The notes under the pieces are model-generated. The model was not told the DNA's origin. It was given only the letters and a program-made list of their open reading frames with translations, and did not search any database. Below are positions 7,990 through 15,212 of a stretch of DNA of 15,212 bases, piece by piece. The DNA comes from Pseudomonadota bacterium (GTDB lineage Bacteria > Myxococcota > JACRCW01 > JAFGSX01), in contig JBDRCO010000006.1 in assembly GCA_043821645.1 (NCBI GenBank), forward strand, positions 1 to 15,212, in the 5' to 3' direction. Within the stretch, counting starts at the first letter, position 1; every line of letters begins with the position of its first letter. Position numbers and translations under genes: made by a program.

Positions 7990-8015
7990 GAGGAGCCGTC
8001 GTCCCTGAAGGATGC

Positions 8016-8327
8016 CTACTTCTTCTTCTTGGACTTGGTCTTGTCGGACTGTGCCTGGGACAGCGAGGTGCCGTCCGACAGGAAGTGCACCTGCGACCAG
8101 GGCACCAGGATGTGCGGCACCTCGGGATATTCCTGCGAACCCACGATGGCGCCGAGGTCATTGAGACCCATCAGCCATCCATCCATGCCGACCTTGAAGC
8201 CCCAGCTTGGCAGCTCGGTGGCCGTCGACAGGCGCACGTGGGTTGGCTTGTCGTCGCAGCCCAGGCGCTTGGCCACCTCGCTGACGTTCCCCTTGGCAAT
8301 CTCGAGCAGGTAGATGTTTTCGGCCAT
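8016..8327 (-). CDS. Hypothetical protein, 103 aa, small beta-rich domain with a Lys-rich tail
   Basis: GGAGGT RBS before the ATG, GC3-biased codons, fills the gap between ndk and the upstream gene. No family recognised with confidence. Confidence 0.75.
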   Translation of the reverse strand: MAENIYLLEIAKGNVSEVAKRLGCDDKPTHVRLSTATELPSWGFKVGMDGWLMGLNDLGAIVGSQEYPEVPHILVPWSQVHFLSDGTSLSQAQSDKTKSKKKK

Positions 8328-8408
8328 GATGAGTTACCTCCCGGTGGGACGGGAGCATGGCTCAGGATGGATTTTCTTGGAAGAGGAGAACGAACGCGCG
8401 AGTGGCCA

Positions 8409-9035
8409 CTAGTCGTCGTGGGGCTCCGGCATGATGCCGTAGCGCACCGCGGGTGCCGGGTCAACGTCGACCGGTGGCTTGAAGCCGTAGCGAACGGCGG
8501 GGCCTGGATCCGTGTCGACGTGCGGCCGGATGCCATAGCGCATCACGATGGGCAGGTCGTCGTTGCTTGGCGGCATTATGCCGTAGCGCAAGGCGATCGC
8601 CGGGTCCTCGGGTGTGGGCGGCATGATGCCGTAGCGCATCGCGATGGGCGGGACACCGCTGTCGTCGATGGCCGCGGCCATGCGCATCTCCATCGCGAGC
8701 TGCACGGCCAGCTTGCCCGTGGTCGACATCTTGTCGATCTCGCTCTTGCTCAGGCCGTTGTTGTTGAGGTCGTACTGGTTGATGAGCTTGTCCTTGGCGT
8801 AGGCCACGGCCTTGTCGATGTCCTTCTTGGTGACCACTGCACCGGGAACGTGGTCGCGGTGGTCAATGAACTTGAAGAAGATGTCGACCAGGTTGCGCTC
8901 GGTGCCCTTGAGGTCCTGGAGCTTGGCCTTGATGTCCGCACGACTGACCCGACCGTCCGGGCCCGCGGCATCCTCGATCTGCTTGGCTGCTCTCATCAGG
9001 GCAGCGTTGACGTCCGAACGTGCGATGCGTGCCAT
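8409..9035 (-). CDS. Protein with an N-terminal helical/EF-hand-like domain and five C-terminal 16-aa RYG repeats; candidate RiPP-like precursor
   Basis: ATG 9035 preceded by GAGGAGGA; 208 aa. EF-hand-like loops AAGPDGRVSRADI and YDLNNNGLSKSEI. C-terminal repeats PIAMRYGIMP, AIALRYGIMP, PIVMRYGIRP, GPAVRYGFKP and APAVRYGIMP. The gene call is confident; the function is inference. Confidence 0.85.
   Translation of the reverse strand: MARIARSDVNAALMRAAKQIEDAAGPDGRVSRADIKAKLQDLKGTERNLVDIFFKFIDHRDHVPGAVVTKKDIDKAVAYAKDKLINQYDLNNNGLSKSEIDKMSTTGKLAVQLAMEMRMAAAIDDSGVPPIAMRYGIMPPTPEDPAIALRYGIMPPSNDDLPIVMRYGIRPHVDTDPGPAVRYGFKPPVDVDPAPAVRYGIMPEPHDD
8412..8655 (-). repeat. Five degenerate 48-bp tandem coding repeats
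   Basis: GCCRTAGCG (reverse complement of the Arg-Tyr-Gly codons) starts at 8436, 8484, 8532, 8580 and 8628, an exact 48-bp period. Confidence 0.95.
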
Positions 9036-9072: not shown

Positions 9073-9429
9073 TCAGAAACCGGCCAGGCGTATCCCCAGG
9101 GGACTGTCGCCCGGTGTCATCAGAAAGCCCAGGTGCTGCAGCAGGTCCGTATCGCCGTGGTAAACGATATCTCCCTTGCGCACCAGCTCGCGCGCTTTGC
9201 TCGACCCGCTGACGAAGCCCTCGAAGCCCTGCGCCGTGAACCAGACCTTGAGCTCGGCCCGGGCGTCAAAGCCCTCGGTCACAGGCGCGTCGAGGTCGCC
9301 CAGGTGCAAGGTCCACGCGCCAGCCCCCTTGACCTTGCAGGCGATGGTGCCTTGCATGAGCAGGAAGCGGTCGACGTCGCGTGCCACGACGGACGGGATC
9401 GCGACCTCAAAAAAACGTTCGGCATCCAT
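9073..9429 (-). CDS. SCP2 sterol/lipid-binding domain protein
   Basis: 118 aa from ATG 9429. Pattern GAGAWTLHL...VTEG...AELKVWFTAQGFEGFVSG...LVRKGDIVYHGDTDLLQHL matches the SCP2 fold layout. Confidence 0.7.
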   Translation of the reverse strand: MDAERFFEVAIPSVVARDVDRFLLMQGTIACKVKGAGAWTLHLGDLDAPVTEGFDARAELKVWFTAQGFEGFVSGSSKARELVRKGDIVYHGDTDLLQHLGFLMTPGDSPLGIRLAGF

Positions 9430-9547
9430 CCTTGAAACCCCGACCCTTTGCGGTGTCGCCGCAGGCAGGCATGGATAATACACGGGGTGCCCCAGGTTTG
9501 GCGAACAAGACCCTGGGAGGTTAAAAAATCAAGCGAAGACAAGAAGT

Positions 9548-10726: not shown

Positions 10727-11908
10727 ATGCTGCAGCGCTTCGCACTGTTGATCGGCCTGTCTGTCGCCATGATGGCCTGTCCCAAGGCCAAGCCCGAACC
10801 CTCGCAGGCCGGGACCGTGACAGACTTCAGCGCGGGCAAGTTCTCGCGCAGCGCCGTGTGCAAGCAGTGTCACGTCGACATTTATCAGTTCTGGAGCGTG
10901 TCCGCGCACGCCACGTCCTACCGCAATCGTAACTTTCAGGTTGCGCAGCAGCAGTTCCGGCAAGGAGCGAAGCCTGAGGATGCCAACCTGTGCGTCAGCT
11001 GCCACGCACCCCTGATGCTGCATGCGGATTCGCAGACCGCGTACAAAGAATGGAAGCCCGTCTCGACCCTGGAGGACGAGGGTGTCGGGTGCGACTTCTG
11101 TCACTCGATCAAGGCTGTGGATCTGGCCTCAAGGACCTCGCCCTACACCCTGGAACCCGGCCCGATCAAGTTCGGCCCTGTTGCGGACGCGTCGGACCAG
11201 GAGCATGGCGTGGTGCACAGCGAGCTCTTCAGTCAGTCGACGATCTGCGCCGGCTGCCATGAGTACAAGAAGCCAGGCACCGGGCTCGCGATCATCTCGA
11301 CGTACAGCGAGTGGCAACAGACCGATCACGGCACGAAGGGCGAGCACTGCCAGAGTTGCCACATGAAGGTGGAACCCGGGAACATCGTCGACCCCAAGGT
11401 CAAGCGCAGCGACCGGCCCGTCAATGCCCACCGCATGCCCGGCAGCCACTCGCGGGCGCTCCTGCGCGAGGCGCTGCGCCTTCGCATCGACGACCTGAAG
11501 CAGAATGGAGACAGGGTCGAGGTGACCGTGGTGGTCGAGAACAAGGGCGGTGGCCACTCCATCCCCACCGGCATGCCCACGCGCAAGCTTGAACTGGAGG
11601 TCGAGGCGGCCACCCCCGCAGGTCTCTCCTACAAGGAGCGCCGCGTGTACCAGAAGGTCCTCGTCGACGACAAGGGCCTGAGCATCGTCGCCGACAGCGA
11701 GGCCTTCCTGAACGCCGTGGCGATCAAGACGGACAACCGTATCGCCGCAGGGGAGGAGCGTCGCGAGAGCTTCTCTTTCCCGGTGCCCCACACCGAACAG
11801 CTGACCGTGCGCGCGCACCTGATCTACAGCTACAGCCCGCAGCCCGACACCCTGCCCGAGGAGCGCCTCGGCGTGGTCAGCGTCGAGAAGTCCCTGGCGG
11901 CGCGCTGA
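10727..11908 (+). CDS. Pentaheme cytochrome c lipoprotein with C-terminal beta-rich domain
   Basis: Five CxxCH motifs (CKQCH, CVSCH, CDFCH, CAGCH, CQSCH), signal peptide ending VAMMA-C, GGHSIPTG motif. GGGGAG RBS. Confidence 0.9.
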   Translation: MLQRFALLIGLSVAMMACPKAKPEPSQAGTVTDFSAGKFSRSAVCKQCHVDIYQFWSVSAHATSYRNRNFQVAQQQFRQGAKPEDANLCVSCHAPLMLHADSQTAYKEWKPVSTLEDEGVGCDFCHSIKAVDLASRTSPYTLEPGPIKFGPVADASDQEHGVVHSELFSQSTICAGCHEYKKPGTGLAIISTYSEWQQTDHGTKGEHCQSCHMKVEPGNIVDPKVKRSDRPVNAHRMPGSHSRALLREALRLRIDDLKQNGDRVEVTVVVENKGGGHSIPTGMPTRKLELEVEAATPAGLSYKERRVYQKVLVDDKGLSIVADSEAFLNAVAIKTDNRIAAGEERRESFSFPVPHTEQLTVRAHLIYSYSPQPDTLPEERLGVVSVEKSLAAR

Positions 11909-11961
11909 GCGCGGCGCCATAGTGAGCGCGGCGCGGGGGGACCGCGCGCGAGGTCACCGAT

Positions 11962-12936
11962 ATGAAGCCAGCAGATCATGCACCGCCCCCGGATGGCGGT
12001 TCCGGGAACCGGCACGTCCGGATCGTGTTTGGCGTGCTCACCGTCGTCATCGTGGTGGTGGCCACGGCGCGCTGGATGGCAGTGCCGGCGACCTACGGCG
12101 AGTACGGGCACTTTCGCGGCGCGGCCCGCGAGGTGGTGATGAACGACCCGCAGCCGCTGCACCAGGGCCAGGACAAGTGCGGGGAGTGCCACGACGACGA
12201 GGCCGCGGTCCACGCCAAGGACGTCCACGGCACCGTGCAGTGCGAGACCTGCCACGGCCCGGGTGGCGCGCACGTGGCCGCGCAGAGTGGCGACGAGGCC
12301 ATCCGCAAGGACGGCCCGCCCATCCGCAAGCCAGACGGCGCGCTGGACTGCCTGACCTGCCACCGGCGGCTGGTGGCGCGACCCGCGGGCTTCCCGCAGA
12401 TCGACCAGACCGAGCACTTTGCGATGCTGCACGTGAACAAGCCCGAGACCCCGTGCAAGAGCTGCCACAGCCCGCACGAGCCGCTATTCGTCGACGGGAC
12501 GGTGGCCGGAGCGCGCCTGCACCCGGTGATCAACGAGTGCGTGGACTGCCACAAGCACGCACAGGATCCCAGGGCCGAGCGGCCTGCCGCGCACCCCGTG
12601 GTGTTCGAGTGCAGCTACTGTCACGGCGCCATCGCCCGCGATCAGGCGACGCGCACCCACAAGGACTTCCGCTGCGGCGTGTGCCACCAGGCCTACCCGG
12701 TGAGCGAGCGCGCCGCGCGCGTGCTCAAGCACCGCGACCCTCGCTTCTGCCTGCTGTGCCACAGCGGAGCGGAGTTCAAGGACGACAAGGCGCCGCCTGC
12801 CATCGCGTGGCCGCAGCACAAGGTCGACATGGTGGGCGAGGAGGCCGGTGACAAGGTCTGCGTCGACTGCCACCGCGAGGCCTTCCACCTGGCACCGGAC
12901 GCGCTGGCCAAGGCGGGGACAGGAGCGACGCCATGA
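11962..12936 (+). CDS. Membrane-anchored nonaheme cytochrome c
   Basis: Nine CxxCH motifs (CGECH, CETCH, CLTCH, CKSCH, CVDCH, CSYCH, CGVCH, CLLCH, CVDCH) and an N-terminal hydrophobic helix IVFGVLTVVIVVVATA. GAGGT RBS. Confidence 0.92.
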   Translation: MKPADHAPPPDGGSGNRHVRIVFGVLTVVIVVVATARWMAVPATYGEYGHFRGAAREVVMNDPQPLHQGQDKCGECHDDEAAVHAKDVHGTVQCETCHGPGGAHVAAQSGDEAIRKDGPPIRKPDGALDCLTCHRRLVARPAGFPQIDQTEHFAMLHVNKPETPCKSCHSPHEPLFVDGTVAGARLHPVINECVDCHKHAQDPRAERPAAHPVVFECSYCHGAIARDQATRTHKDFRCGVCHQAYPVSERAARVLKHRDPRFCLLCHSGAEFKDDKAPPAIAWPQHKVDMVGEEAGDKVCVDCHREAFHLAPDALAKAGTGATP

Positions 12937-13748
12937 CCAAGAAGAAGACCCACCCCGAGAACCTGGTGCGGCCGCCCACGTCGATGCTGCGGCGAGACTT
13001 CCTGGTCAAGAGCGCCGCAGCCGCCGGGGGCCTGCTGGTGTGGACCTTCCCGGGGCTGCGAGCCCGCGCCGAGGGCAGCACGGCACCGACCGAGGGCTAT
13101 GACTGGAATCAGCACTACTGGGGCTACGCCGTCGACACCACCAAGTGCGTCGGCTGCAACGCCTGCGCGCGCGCCTGCCGCGCCGAGAACGGGGTGCCGG
13201 CAGGCAACCACCGCACCTGGGTCGAGCGCTACGAGATCGACGACGCGGGCGAGGCCCACGTCGACGTGGCCAGTAACGTGCGGGTGACCTTCGACGGGGA
13301 TGAGCTGACCGCCGATCGCTCGGGCAAGGCGCCGCTTAAGGCTTTCTTTGTGCCAAAGCTCTGCAACCACTGCGAGAAGTCGGTGTGCACCCAGGTGTGC
13401 CCTGTGGGCGCGAGCTTCTCCACCAAGGACGGCGTGGTGATGGTGGATCCGGGCTACTGCATCGGCTGCGGTTACTGCGTGCAGGCCTGCCCCTATGGCT
13501 CGCGCTTCATGAACGCCGAAACCCACATGGCCGACAAGTGCACGCTGTGCTACCACCGCATCACCAAGGGGCTCAAGCCCGCCTGCGTGCAGAGCTGCCC
13601 GGTGGGCGCGCGCATCTTCGGCGACCTCAAGGATCCGCACAGCGACATCTCGCGGGTGCTCAAGGAGCGGCGCTACACGCTGCTCAAGCCTGAGATGGGA
13701 ACGCATCCCAAGTGCTACTACATCGGCCTCGACCAGGAGGTGATCTGA
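12933..13748 (+). CDS. NrfC/DmsB-type 4x[4Fe-4S] protein with Tat signal
   Basis: Twin-arginine LRRDFLV. Cys groups CVGCNACARAC, CNHCEKSVCTQVCP, CIGCGYCVQACP and KCTLC...PACVQSCP. ATGA overlap with the upstream gene. Confidence 0.93.
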   Translation: MTKKKTHPENLVRPPTSMLRRDFLVKSAAAAGGLLVWTFPGLRARAEGSTAPTEGYDWNQHYWGYAVDTTKCVGCNACARACRAENGVPAGNHRTWVERYEIDDAGEAHVDVASNVRVTFDGDELTADRSGKAPLKAFFVPKLCNHCEKSVCTQVCPVGASFSTKDGVVMVDPGYCIGCGYCVQACPYGSRFMNAETHMADKCTLCYHRITKGLKPACVQSCPVGARIFGDLKDPHSDISRVLKERRYTLLKPEMGTHPKCYYIGLDQEVI

Positions 13749-14905
13749 TGGAAGGCTTCGTCTTCCCCAACGAGCAGAACGTCACCTGGACGGTGATGAT
13801 CGTGCTCTATCCCTACATCACGGGCCTGGTCGCCGGCGCCTTCATCGTGTCGTCGCTGTACCATGTGTTCGGCGCCACCCAGATCAAGCCAGTGGCGCGC
13901 TTCTCGCTGGCCTCGGCTTTTGTGTTTTTGCTGTTCGCGACCCTGCCACTGCTGATCCACCTCGGGCAGCCGCAGCGCGCCTTCAACATCATGATCACGC
14001 CCAACTTCACATCGGCGATGGCGGGCTTTGGCTACATTTACAGCTCGTACCTCGTCGTCGTCGCGCTCGAGATCTGGTTCGTGATGCGTGAGGACTTCGT
14101 CAAGCGGGCGAGGGAGGGCAAGGGCCTCATCAGCCTGTTCTGTCGCGTCATCATGTTCAACCAGCTCGAGGTCAGCGACGAGACCCGGCGCATCGACCAC
14201 AAGATCATCAGCTTTCTGGCCGCCCTGGGCATACCCATGGCCTGCCTGCTGCACGGCTACGTGGGATTTCTCTTCGGCTCCCTCAAGGCCAACCCCTGGT
14301 GGTCGACGCCACTGATGTTCATCATCTTCCTGTTCTCGGCCATCGTCAGCGGCATCGCCGTGCTGATCTTTCACTACACCATCGTCAGCAGGATCAACGG
14401 CTGGATCGTCGACCGCGACTGCATTCGCGCCCTGGGTAAGTACCTGTGGGCCTTCATGATCGTCGCCGTCACCCTGGAGTTGCTGGAGGTGCTGTCCATC
14501 GCCTACAAGCAGACCGAGGAGTGGGAGGTGCTGGGCGAGTTGATCATGGGCAAGCTGTTCTACAGCTACGTCGTGTTCCAGTTCTTGATCTTCTCGCTGA
14601 TCCCATTCTTCCTGCTGGCCATCAATGCCATCTTCAAGATCAGCGATCGGACCTCGCACGTGATCGTGTTCATCAGCTCCACCATGCTGCTCATGCAGGT
14701 GCTTCTCATGCGCTGGAATGTGGTCATCGGCGGCCAGCTCGTTTCCAAGAGCATGCGCGGCTTCACCAGTTACGTCCCCGGCATCTGGGAGAAGGAGGGT
14801 CTGGTCACGGCCGCGGTGATCTTCACCGCTCCCTTCATGCTGCTGTGGGTGTTCAACAAGATCGTGCCGCTGTTTCCGGGGGTCGAGAAGAAGAGCCCTG
14901 CTTAG
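13748..14905 (+). CDS. NrfD/PsrC-family integral membrane quinol-interacting subunit
   Basis: ATG 13748 overlaps the upstream TGA, with AGGAGG RBS. Many TM helices; motifs YPYITGLVAG, HLGQPQRA, HGYVGFLF...ANPWWST and MRWNVVIGGQ. Confidence 0.92.
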   Translation: MEGFVFPNEQNVTWTVMIVLYPYITGLVAGAFIVSSLYHVFGATQIKPVARFSLASAFVFLLFATLPLLIHLGQPQRAFNIMITPNFTSAMAGFGYIYSSYLVVVALEIWFVMREDFVKRAREGKGLISLFCRVIMFNQLEVSDETRRIDHKIISFLAALGIPMACLLHGYVGFLFGSLKANPWWSTPLMFIIFLFSAIVSGIAVLIFHYTIVSRINGWIVDRDCIRALGKYLWAFMIVAVTLELLEVLSIAYKQTEEWEVLGELIMGKLFYSYVVFQFLIFSLIPFFLLAINAIFKISDRTSHVIVFISSTMLLMQVLLMRWNVVIGGQLVSKSMRGFTSYVPGIWEKEGLVTAAVIFTAPFMLLWVFNKIVPLFPGVEKKSPA

Positions 14906-14926
14906 GCTGTTTCTGCCTGCCGCTGT

Positions 14927-15030
14927 AGCGCAATGAGGCACAGTGAGCGCATTGAGGGGTAGAGCAGAAAGAGCATTGAGAGCAGTAAGGAACAGAGCAG
15001 AAAAGCAGAAAGAGCAGAAAAGCAGAAAGG
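14927..15030 (+). repeat. Purine-rich stuttered short tandem repeats (AGCAGAAA[G]-like, 8-9 bp)
   Basis: AGCAGAAAG AGCATTGAG AGCAGTAAG ... AGCAGAAA AGCAGAAAG AGCAGAAA AGCAGAAAG. Composition differs markedly from the rest of the window. Confidence 0.8.
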
Positions 15031-15095
15031 GACAGAGACCCAATTTGCCACTGCATTGGGTGCATTGGTGCATTGGGGACAGAGACCCAATTTGC
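15029..15095 (+). repeat. Two identical 20-bp direct repeats GGGACAGAGACCCAATTTGC (REP-like)
   Basis: Copies at 15029-15048 and 15076-15095. The 27-bp spacer is made mainly of TGCATTG(G) x3. A partial third CAATTTGC is at ~15108-15115. Confidence 0.8.
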
Positions 15096-15164
15096 ATCAC
15101 GCTGCCTCAATTTGCGACGCCCTACAGGGTGCAATCAGAAAAAAGTGAGGTAATTTCTGGTACC

Positions 15165-15192
15165 GGATGAAGGGGCCCAACTGGCCCCATCC
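15165..15192. other. GC-rich hairpin of unknown role
   Basis: GGAT-GAA-GGGGCC-CAACT-GGCCCC-ATCC inverted repeat with a bulge; no clear U tract. Confidence 0.35.
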
Positions 15193-15212
15193 TTGCTGTA
15201 CCCGCAGATATG

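Follow-up and report, generated by a model that had tools for sequence, protein, structure and literature searches.

A candidate five-site spliceotide-type module on an EF-hand-like carrier protein, encoded without an adjacent radical SAM enzyme in a Myxococcota genome

The window analyzed here is an entire contig of 15,212 bp (JBDRCO010000006.1 of assembly GCA_043821645.1, named as a Pseudomonadota bacterium and placed by GTDB in the Myxococcota), and the locus under study is a pair of reverse-strand genes within it: a tail gene, which encodes the protein P0001, and a small gene downstream of it (Table 1). P0001 joins a folded N-terminal domain, here called the N-domain, to a tail with five Arg-Tyr-Gly (R-Y-G) units. 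As judged by alignment, the tail is homologous to the R-Y-G repeat precursors of PlpX-family (TIGR04103-like) radical S-adenosylmethionine (SAM)/SPASM enzymes of Myxococcota; PlpX-type enzymes that excise tyramine at X-Y-G (XYG) motifs are called spliceases. The host assembly (G000) is 94.7% complete, with 7.07 Mb in 140 contigs and a G+C content of 67%.

Table 1. Features of the window and of the splicease-like cluster on another contig of the same assembly
Feature	Position	Strand	Remarks
Small gene, 103 aa	8016..8327	(-)	81 bp downstream of tail gene; GGGAGG Shine-Dalgarno sequence
Tail gene, P0001, 208 aa	8409..9035	(-)	Stop codon 8409-8411; ATG at 9035
Tail, residues 127-208, predicted disordered, five 16-residue R-Y-G units	8412..8657	(-)	
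N-domain, residues 1-126, all-helical with EF-hand-like loops	8658..9035	(-)	AlphaFold2 model
SCP2-like gene	9073..9483	(-)	37 bp upstream of tail gene; Pfam SCP2, E 2.3e-4
CHAP/NlpC-P60 gene	9548-10471	(-)	
Alternative-complex-III-like operon	10727-15212		Multihaem cytochromes c, 4Fe-4S dicluster protein, NrfD-type membrane subunit
PlpX-like radical SAM/SPASM enzyme, 375 aa	G000:C101:3631-4758		CxxxCxxC at residue 23; SPASM domain
C101 cluster (locus L058)	G000:C101:3631-7941		Enzyme, three XYG peptides, HExxH intramembrane protease, methyltransferase

The tail repeat is strictly periodic. Its tyrosines lie at residues 135, 151, 167, 183 and 199, an exact 16-residue spacing, and all five units fit the consensus [PAG]-[IP]-[AV]-[MLV]-R-Y-G-[IF]-x-P. 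At the DNA level, the five 48-nt units have pairwise identities of 56–75%, their conserved codons differ synonymously, and Tandem Repeats Finder recovers 2.7 copies with 75% matches; because of these three properties, the repeat is an old one, maintained by conservation at the protein level, and not a recent duplication. When the entire genome is scanned in all six frames, P0001 is the sole open reading frame (ORF) of at least 50 aa with two or more copies of the strict motif; once the motif is loosened, 7 of the 88,891 frames with at least 40 aa qualify, including P0001, and three of the other six are core peptides of the C101 cluster described below. A GGAGG Shine-Dalgarno sequence lies 7 nt before the ATG of P0001. 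In an AlphaFold2 model built with 147 homologues, the predicted local distance difference test (pLDDT) averages 44 to 63 over 10-residue blocks from residue 131 onward, so that the tail is predicted to be disordered and accessible to an enzyme, which we count in favor of its being a substrate.

Within the N-domain family, the XYG tail is found in P0001 and five relatives only (P0002 to P0006; 59–64% identity). Across the alignment of these six proteins, Tyr is invariant at all five sites and Gly at four of them, with Ala at the second unit in three of the six; the D-P pair ahead of each unit is conserved, and the X position holds R, M, L, E or K. Since Tyr is invariant, Gly nearly so and X variable, the Y-G pair is constrained and Arg at X is not. 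The initial annotation, made from the sequence of the window alone, had described the five units, their exact spacing and their consensus, and had deduced selection on the motif; all of this was borne out. Free substitution of Tyr or Gly in homologues, which would have spoken against its proposal, is limited to the one Gly-to-Ala change. The weight it placed on Arg at X, however, is not supported by the homologues.

Profile and similarity searches with P0001 or its tail returned little. P0001 has no Pfam or NCBIfam family match; the tail, used as query in a translated search against the genome collection, gave 87 pattern stretches, none of which was confirmed by tblastn; and among a phylum sample of 401 genomes, no match runs through the tail besides that in the host genome. 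A 424-residue protein (P0253) that matched the tail in a representative search was rejected as a low-complexity match, because its R-H-G-Y-R-P-P repeat is unrelated.

The homology of the tail becomes apparent at loci where an enzyme is present. In a genome from a different family of the phylum (G400, contig C882), a 146-residue ORF contains three copies of PPIAMRYGVIRP (P-P-I-A-M-R-Y-G-V-I-R-P), aligns with the tail at 58% identity (E 4e-7) and terminates 13 bp ahead of a radical SAM/SPASM gene whose score against TIGR04103 is 643 bits. Further, a DNA pattern scan of the species-level genome collection, which sought three codon groups for R-Y-G followed by a hydrophobic residue at a spacing of 13 to 22 residues, yielded at least 122 stretches, and the DNA of 80 of these loci was examined; the scan counts are lower bounds. 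Three or more R-Y-G motifs were in frame at 28 of the 80 loci. Judged from their printed peptides, 24 of these 28 are not proline-rich and look like off-frame readings of DNA repeats, and they were set aside. Among the matches listed, four in-frame loci are proline-rich (L080, L103, L125 and L131), all from Myxococcota metagenome-assembled genomes (MAGs) and each with five units of the form PPIAMRYGLP... or PPVVARYGV... A radical SAM gene lies directly downstream in all four, compared with none of the other 76 loci examined, and the four enzymes score 645–665 bits to TIGR04103 over positions 1–406 of its 412 (cut-off 725). The tail matches these precursors with tblastn E values of 1e-12 to 1e-15, which are generous values, since neither composition statistics nor the low-complexity filter was applied. 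In five precursors (L080, L103, L125, L131 and L057), the sequence [FE]-F-P-R-x-x-W-x-D-P-x-x-L occurs about 30–50 residues before the first repeat and is absent from P0001; it may be a recognition element of the R-Y-G precursors.

The small gene provides a second connection to the same cassettes. A single-sequence homologue search with the small protein found only the protein itself, and no match to it exists in Pfam, in NCBIfam or among PDB sequences; a profile search assembled a family of 111 proteins of about 95 aa, all unnamed, whose named sources are all Myxococcota except for one partial entry from a Candidatus Eremiobacterota MAG (P0366). In all four loci with five R-Y-G units, a small-gene homologue (33–36% identity, E 1e-16 to 1e-18) lies directly downstream of the radical SAM gene, and six small proteins align from end to end with invariant P-T-H-V-R-L, P-H, P-W and D-G positions. 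In the phylum sample, the family occurs in 19 of the 401 genomes with one copy each. A radical SAM gene is directly upstream of the small gene in 13 of these 19 loci, with XYG repeats before it where the locus extends, and in a single one, the window, the small gene directly follows a tail gene with no enzyme between them. Moreover, tblastn searches find a small gene beside all three tail-bearing N-domain genes (the window, L059 and L060) but beside none of the remaining 35 N-domain loci (L020–L036 and L061–L078). By analogy with known splicease systems, the small protein is possibly an adaptor that presents the tail to the enzyme: PlpY is encoded by a small gene directly downstream of plpX, and PlpX needs PlpY for activity (PMC5995677; PMC11414181, in excerpt); binary splicease systems without such a partner are also reported (PMC11414181, in excerpt). 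The AlphaFold2 model of the small protein is unfit for a fold search because its pLDDT is 56; its look-alikes in the ESM Atlas are SH3-like or Sm-like barrels with template modeling (TM) scores of 0.5–0.6, a lead only. As a separate observation, at five loci where the small gene stands by itself (L210, L212, L215, L216 and L217), two copies follow an ORF resembling an FAD oxidoreductase and two follow a TetR-like ORF, as read from their translations.

The absence of an enzyme gene from this gene order is real. A contig from an independent DNA run spans 8294–8637 with no differences and thereby links the repeats, across the spacer, to the small gene, and the metagenome contig L059 has the same order, with an SCP2-like gene, an N-domain gene with an XYG tail and, after a 69-bp gap, a small gene, and no radical SAM gene. 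Neither the window nor L059 has a PlpX-family radical SAM/SPASM gene adjacent to its repeats, whereas the homologous repeats in five other genomes do. An SCP2-like gene lies upstream of, and in the same orientation as, the adjacent N-domain gene in L059, L023, L024, L027, L065 and L072, and in the last five of these loci the N-domain gene is tail-less. Because L059 shares the order, the independent contig bridges it and SCP2-like genes also precede tail-less N-domain genes, the arrangement of sequences reads as a chimera of two modules, one with the SCP2-like gene and the N-domain and the other with the R-Y-G repeats and the small gene, from which the enzyme gene is absent. The remainder of the contig has housekeeping functions: GltX, GpsA, an acyltransferase, an APP1-like phosphatase, a PLD/HhH protein and the alternative-complex-III-like operon. 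Contigs from RNA libraries (two runs of one aquatic sample) match 8005–8291, inside the small gene, with identities of at least 99%, where carry-over of DNA is possible; the same contigs do not cover the tail gene.

The carrier half of P0001 has a family history of its own. In the AlphaFold2 model, the N-domain has pLDDT values above 95, save for one 10-residue block at 87, which agrees with the earlier claim of a folded domain fused to the repeats. Its relatives number 211 at E ≤ 1e-3 in a clustered database and 197 in a representative library; their named sources are all Myxococcota MAGs, and in the searches made the family is confined to that phylum, where it was found in 57 of the 401 sampled genomes. 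Some members consist of the N-domain by itself (about 127 aa), and others add C-terminal modules of various kinds. A scan of 147 homologues found NuiA (nuclease A inhibitor-like) in 46, NuiA_2 in four and a chagasin-type Inhibitor_I42 domain in two, and weak EF-hand matches in Pfam in three. P0001 contains the loop D-L-N-N-N-G-L-S-K-S-E, an instance of the general form D-L-N-N-N-G-L-S-x-x-E. Fold matches are weak and mostly to EF-hand proteins (Foldseek best E of 0.3; VIA Z of 4.7 to lanmodulin), and as the best VIA Z score of 5.6 is also weak, the fold is left unnamed. The N-domain has no similarity to the leaders of the C101 peptides or to the N-terminal parts of the R-Y-G precursors: residues 1–126 are a folded domain of a separate family and not a spliceotide leader of the Nif11, NHLP or activating-helix type.

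Elsewhere in the genome, there is one candidate for the missing enzyme. Of 18 ORFs with a SPASM domain, a single one has TIGR04103 ("nif11-class peptide radical SAM maturase 3") as its best match; this enzyme, encoded on contig C101, scores 300.5 bits, below the cut-off of 725, and 296 bits to TIGR03913. Directly downstream of its gene are three small ORFs that share the leader ...R-I-A-P-V-K-C-D-K-N-P-x-A-P-E-C and whose cores consist of XYG units (X being R, E, L, D or M), including A-P-V-A-R-Y-G-V and D-P-V-V-R-Y-G-I. The HExxH intramembrane protease and the methyltransferase of the cluster score 209 bits (cut-off 300) and 61.5 bits (cut-off 175) to daptide models. G001, the one other genome from this taxonomic order, has an orthologous enzyme at 78% identity, followed by five XYG peptides. 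Enzymes of the same intermediate class (250–300 bits) are fused at their C-termini to four to eight XYG repeats in five loci. These fused repeats (L039–L043, in G026, G336, G085, G243 and G091) are rich in Cys, for example C-E-C-E-Y-G-V-I-P-P; enzyme and multi-site substrate are apparently one polypeptide. A complex prediction with the C101 enzyme, tail residues 121–208, SAM and three 4Fe-4S clusters, run without controls, scored 0.00 against a mark of 0.32 and speaks neither for nor against binding.

Two further YG-containing frames were observed in the host genome. A TIGR04133-like radical SAM/SPASM gene (G000:C44:1235-2806, L011; 374 bits, cut-off 425) has, upstream of it, a gene for a 142-residue lipoprotein in which the lipobox Cys is followed directly by Y-G-M-P. 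A 170-codon frame (G000:C76:129914-130423) has two P/V-x-Y-G-[VI] sites after a lipobox-like A-L-D-A-C sequence, and is either a further YG substrate or a chance match.

To our knowledge, ribosomal products acquire beta-amino acids and ketoamide warheads through spliceases only. These enzymes excise a tyramine equivalent at XYG motifs, leaving alpha-keto-beta-amino acids (PMC11414181, in excerpt; PMC5995677), and the spliced peptides inhibit serine and cysteine proteases while the unspliced ones do not (PMC11626197, in excerpt). PlpXY also acts, free of any leader, on short splice tags placed in disordered or terminal segments of unrelated proteins (PMC11414181 and PMC10533398, both in excerpt), one example of a modified tag being P-I-R-P-L-Y-G-L-P-I (PMC10533398, in excerpt). 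According to the excerpted text of a review, Scott et al. 2022 mined YG motifs beside rSAM-SPASM genes, obtained hits in 189 genera and confirmed 27 pairs (PMC10849128), and the natural end products and roles of spliceases are described as still largely unknown (PMC9811515, in excerpt). A literature search returned no paper that ties spliceases to Myxococcota cassettes, to Arg at X or to protein substrates unlinked from their enzyme; Scott et al. 2022 lay outside its coverage and may list R-Y-G cassettes.

Our preferred reading, which we hold to be evenly poised between right and wrong, is that the tail is a five-site core module of the spliceotide type, joined to an EF-hand-like carrier, whose partner gene was kept and whose enzyme gene was lost, and that splicing in trans gives a ketoamide inhibitor or an immunity-type protein. 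A radical SAM splicease encoded elsewhere would receive the disordered tail, possibly with the small protein as its presenter; the assembly offers one candidate, the C101 enzyme, whose own cores contain P-V-[AV]-R-Y-G-[VI] sites. At each R-Y-G, the enzyme would remove a tyramine equivalent (135 Da) and so produce an alpha-keto-beta-arginine residue, and the resulting protein would bear as many as five ketoamide warheads. Its target would be a protease, which it would counter inside the cell as an inhibitor or a protein of the immunity type; since the carrier's paralogues bear NuiA and chagasin domains, this role is a reasonable guess. We infer the modification itself, its action in trans, the choice of enzyme, the chemistry and the inhibitor function. 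The proposal of the initial annotation thus receives partial support. The splicease-type multi-core module is upheld by its alignment with precursors directly upstream of TIGR04103-like genes (643–665 bits) in five other Myxococcota genomes, and the fusion, the conservation of Y-G, the lack of a maturase in the window and the presence of a splicease-like gene with its own XYG cores in the genome are likewise as it had proposed or anticipated. Modification, action in trans and trypsin-type inhibition stay at the level of proposals, as does any role for Arg at X, where homologues have M, L, E or K. The initial annotation had mentioned neither the small gene, which connects the locus with radical SAM cassettes, nor the inhibitor domains on paralogues of the N-domain.

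Several findings weigh against this reading. No radical SAM gene is found within the contig, which extends 8.4 kb on one side of the tail gene and 6.2 kb on the other. The C101 enzyme is about 39% identical to the G400 enzyme, belongs to a different, uncharacterized class and has no adjacent small gene; a TIGR04103 search of the assembly gave nothing above 300 bits and no fragment of the enzyme class that pairs with R-Y-G precursors. The leader that the C101 peptides share is absent from P0001, as is the F-P-R-x-x-W-x-D-P motif found in the R-Y-G precursors, and in G001 (82% complete) the enzyme cluster is present and the tail protein and small gene were not found. In 5 of the 19 loci of the phylum sample, the small gene has no radical SAM gene or YG-rich ORF nearby, and for this reason its family may have a function of its own. 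The small protein itself shows no PqqD or RiPP recognition element (RRE) signature, RiPPs being peptides made by ribosomes and modified after translation, nor a Pfam match, and its poor model is mostly beta. In the literature searched, no enzyme of these Myxococcota types was found to have been tested. The class assignment also depends on TIGR04103, which we take to be the PlpX family; the cited papers give IPR026482 instead. That placement of PlpX is from PMC11002830 (in excerpt).

Among other explanations, a somewhat unlikely one is that the tail stays unmodified and that, after loss of the enzyme, repeats and small protein persisted together as a binding pair of multivalent proline-rich ligand and beta-rich binder, serving as a tether or regulator of the N-domain protein or as a splicease decoy. 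It would fit the lack of an enzyme at the locus, the order kept in two lineages and the lone small genes, and the fold class of the barrel-like look-alikes, a lead only at their TM scores, includes binders of proline motifs. However, an invariant Tyr beside a free X is the signature of an enzyme target site and not of a typical binding motif, the genome keeps a PlpX-like enzyme whose cluster has P-V-V-R-Y-G sites, and the models of the small protein are of low confidence.

It appears improbable that a radical SAM enzyme modifies the tail at Y-G by a chemistry other than tyramine excision, such as a cross-link or a hydroxylation. All of the enzymes do score below the curated cut-off (300–665 bits against 725), the C101 class scores about equally to TIGR04103 and TIGR03913, and the methyltransferase and protease of its cluster match daptide models below their cut-offs; but the conserved X-Y-G, followed by a hydrophobic residue and flanked by proline-rich sequence, resembles proven tags (PIRPLYGLPI and AVAAMYGVVFP; PMC10533398, in excerpt), and the enzymes beside R-Y-G precursors match TIGR04103 from end to end. 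Quite improbable, too, is a cognate TIGR04103-like enzyme in the unassembled part of the genome, which would make the C101 enzyme irrelevant. The assembly is incomplete and fragmented, and the components of such systems can be scattered, as in the closed genome G247, where about 190 kb or more separate the small gene from any PlpX-like gene; the TIGR04103 search of the assembly, however, recovered not even a fragment of that class. Finally, the notion that the repeat has no relation to radical SAM enzymes, being a disordered, proline-rich linker of a generic sort or a low-complexity repeat that arose by chance, agrees with the lack of Pfam and NCBIfam matches and of relatives confirmed by the translated tail search, but is very improbable and close to refuted, as the octapeptide PPIAMRYG is shared with enzyme-adjacent precursors in another family of the phylum, small-gene synteny points to radical SAM cassettes, Y-G is conserved across homologues at 59–64% identity and the motif is unique within the genome.

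Returning to the reading of the tail as a spliceotide-type core module, the locus suggests that splicease substrates can be full proteins encoded away from their enzyme, and that the R-Y-G type of substrate is accompanied by a conserved small protein without an assigned fold. The exchange of the carrier domain between NuiA or chagasin inhibitors and a spliceable tail points to an intracellular inhibitor or immunity role. A more specific proposal, which we advance tentatively and with more doubt than belief, is that P0001 is a natural protein, as opposed to a peptide natural product, spliced in trans by an enzyme whose gene lies at another place in the genome and which is recruited by a co-encoded adaptor from a new small-protein family, its cytoplasmic EF-hand-like carrier bearing five keto-beta-arginine warheads as a ribosomally made, multivalent, covalent-reversible protease inhibitor or immunity protein. 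If true, engineered splice-tagged proteins would have in P0001 their first native counterpart, and it would belong to a substrate class invisible to neighborhood-based RiPP mining; a fused substrate without its enzyme would escape the published mining because the latter sought YG motifs beside an enzyme gene (PMC10849128, in excerpt). Confirmation would widen the search space for spliced proteins and would offer protein engineering a natural, leader-free scaffold with five sites and possibly a new adaptor.

Compared with known systems, P0001 is similar to the PlpX-type spliceotide precursors (Morinaka 2018 and Scott 2022, as cited in PMC5995677 and in the excerpted PMC10849128 and PMC11414181) in its XYG motifs within hydrophobic, proline-rich contexts, its several sites per protein, its disordered core and its repeat relatives upstream of TIGR04103-like genes; it differs in that a 126-residue folded domain replaces the leader, the locus has no maturase and Arg occupies all five X positions. 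The Myxococcota R-Y-G and K-Y-G cassettes (L080, L103, L125, L131, G400:C882 and the 13 enzyme-bearing loci of the phylum sample) share with the window the PP[IV][AV][MA]RYG core, the three to five units and the small-protein family, whereas their N-terminal part is basic, of low complexity and marked by F-P-R-x-x-W-x-D-P, and their enzyme gene lies between precursor and small gene; in the window, the N-terminal part is EF-hand-like and the enzyme gene is missing. Like cyanobacterial PlpY of type I, the small-family genes directly follow a radical SAM gene in the 13 cassette loci, though not in the window, and they differ from PlpY in having no detectable PqqD/RRE similarity and in being, by a poor model, mostly beta. 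The N-domain fusions to NuiA (PF07924) or chagasin (PF09394) have the same N-domain at 60–70% identity and an inhibitor-type module in the C-terminal slot, which in P0001 is taken by a disordered repeat whose inhibitory action would require modification. A further parallel is with the engineered splice-tagged proteins, in which PlpXY acted on tags in SUMO, MBP, FtsZ and affibodies: as in P0001, a folded protein carries a terminal disordered XYG tag without a leader, but those are laboratory constructs, and P0001 would be a natural case with five tags.

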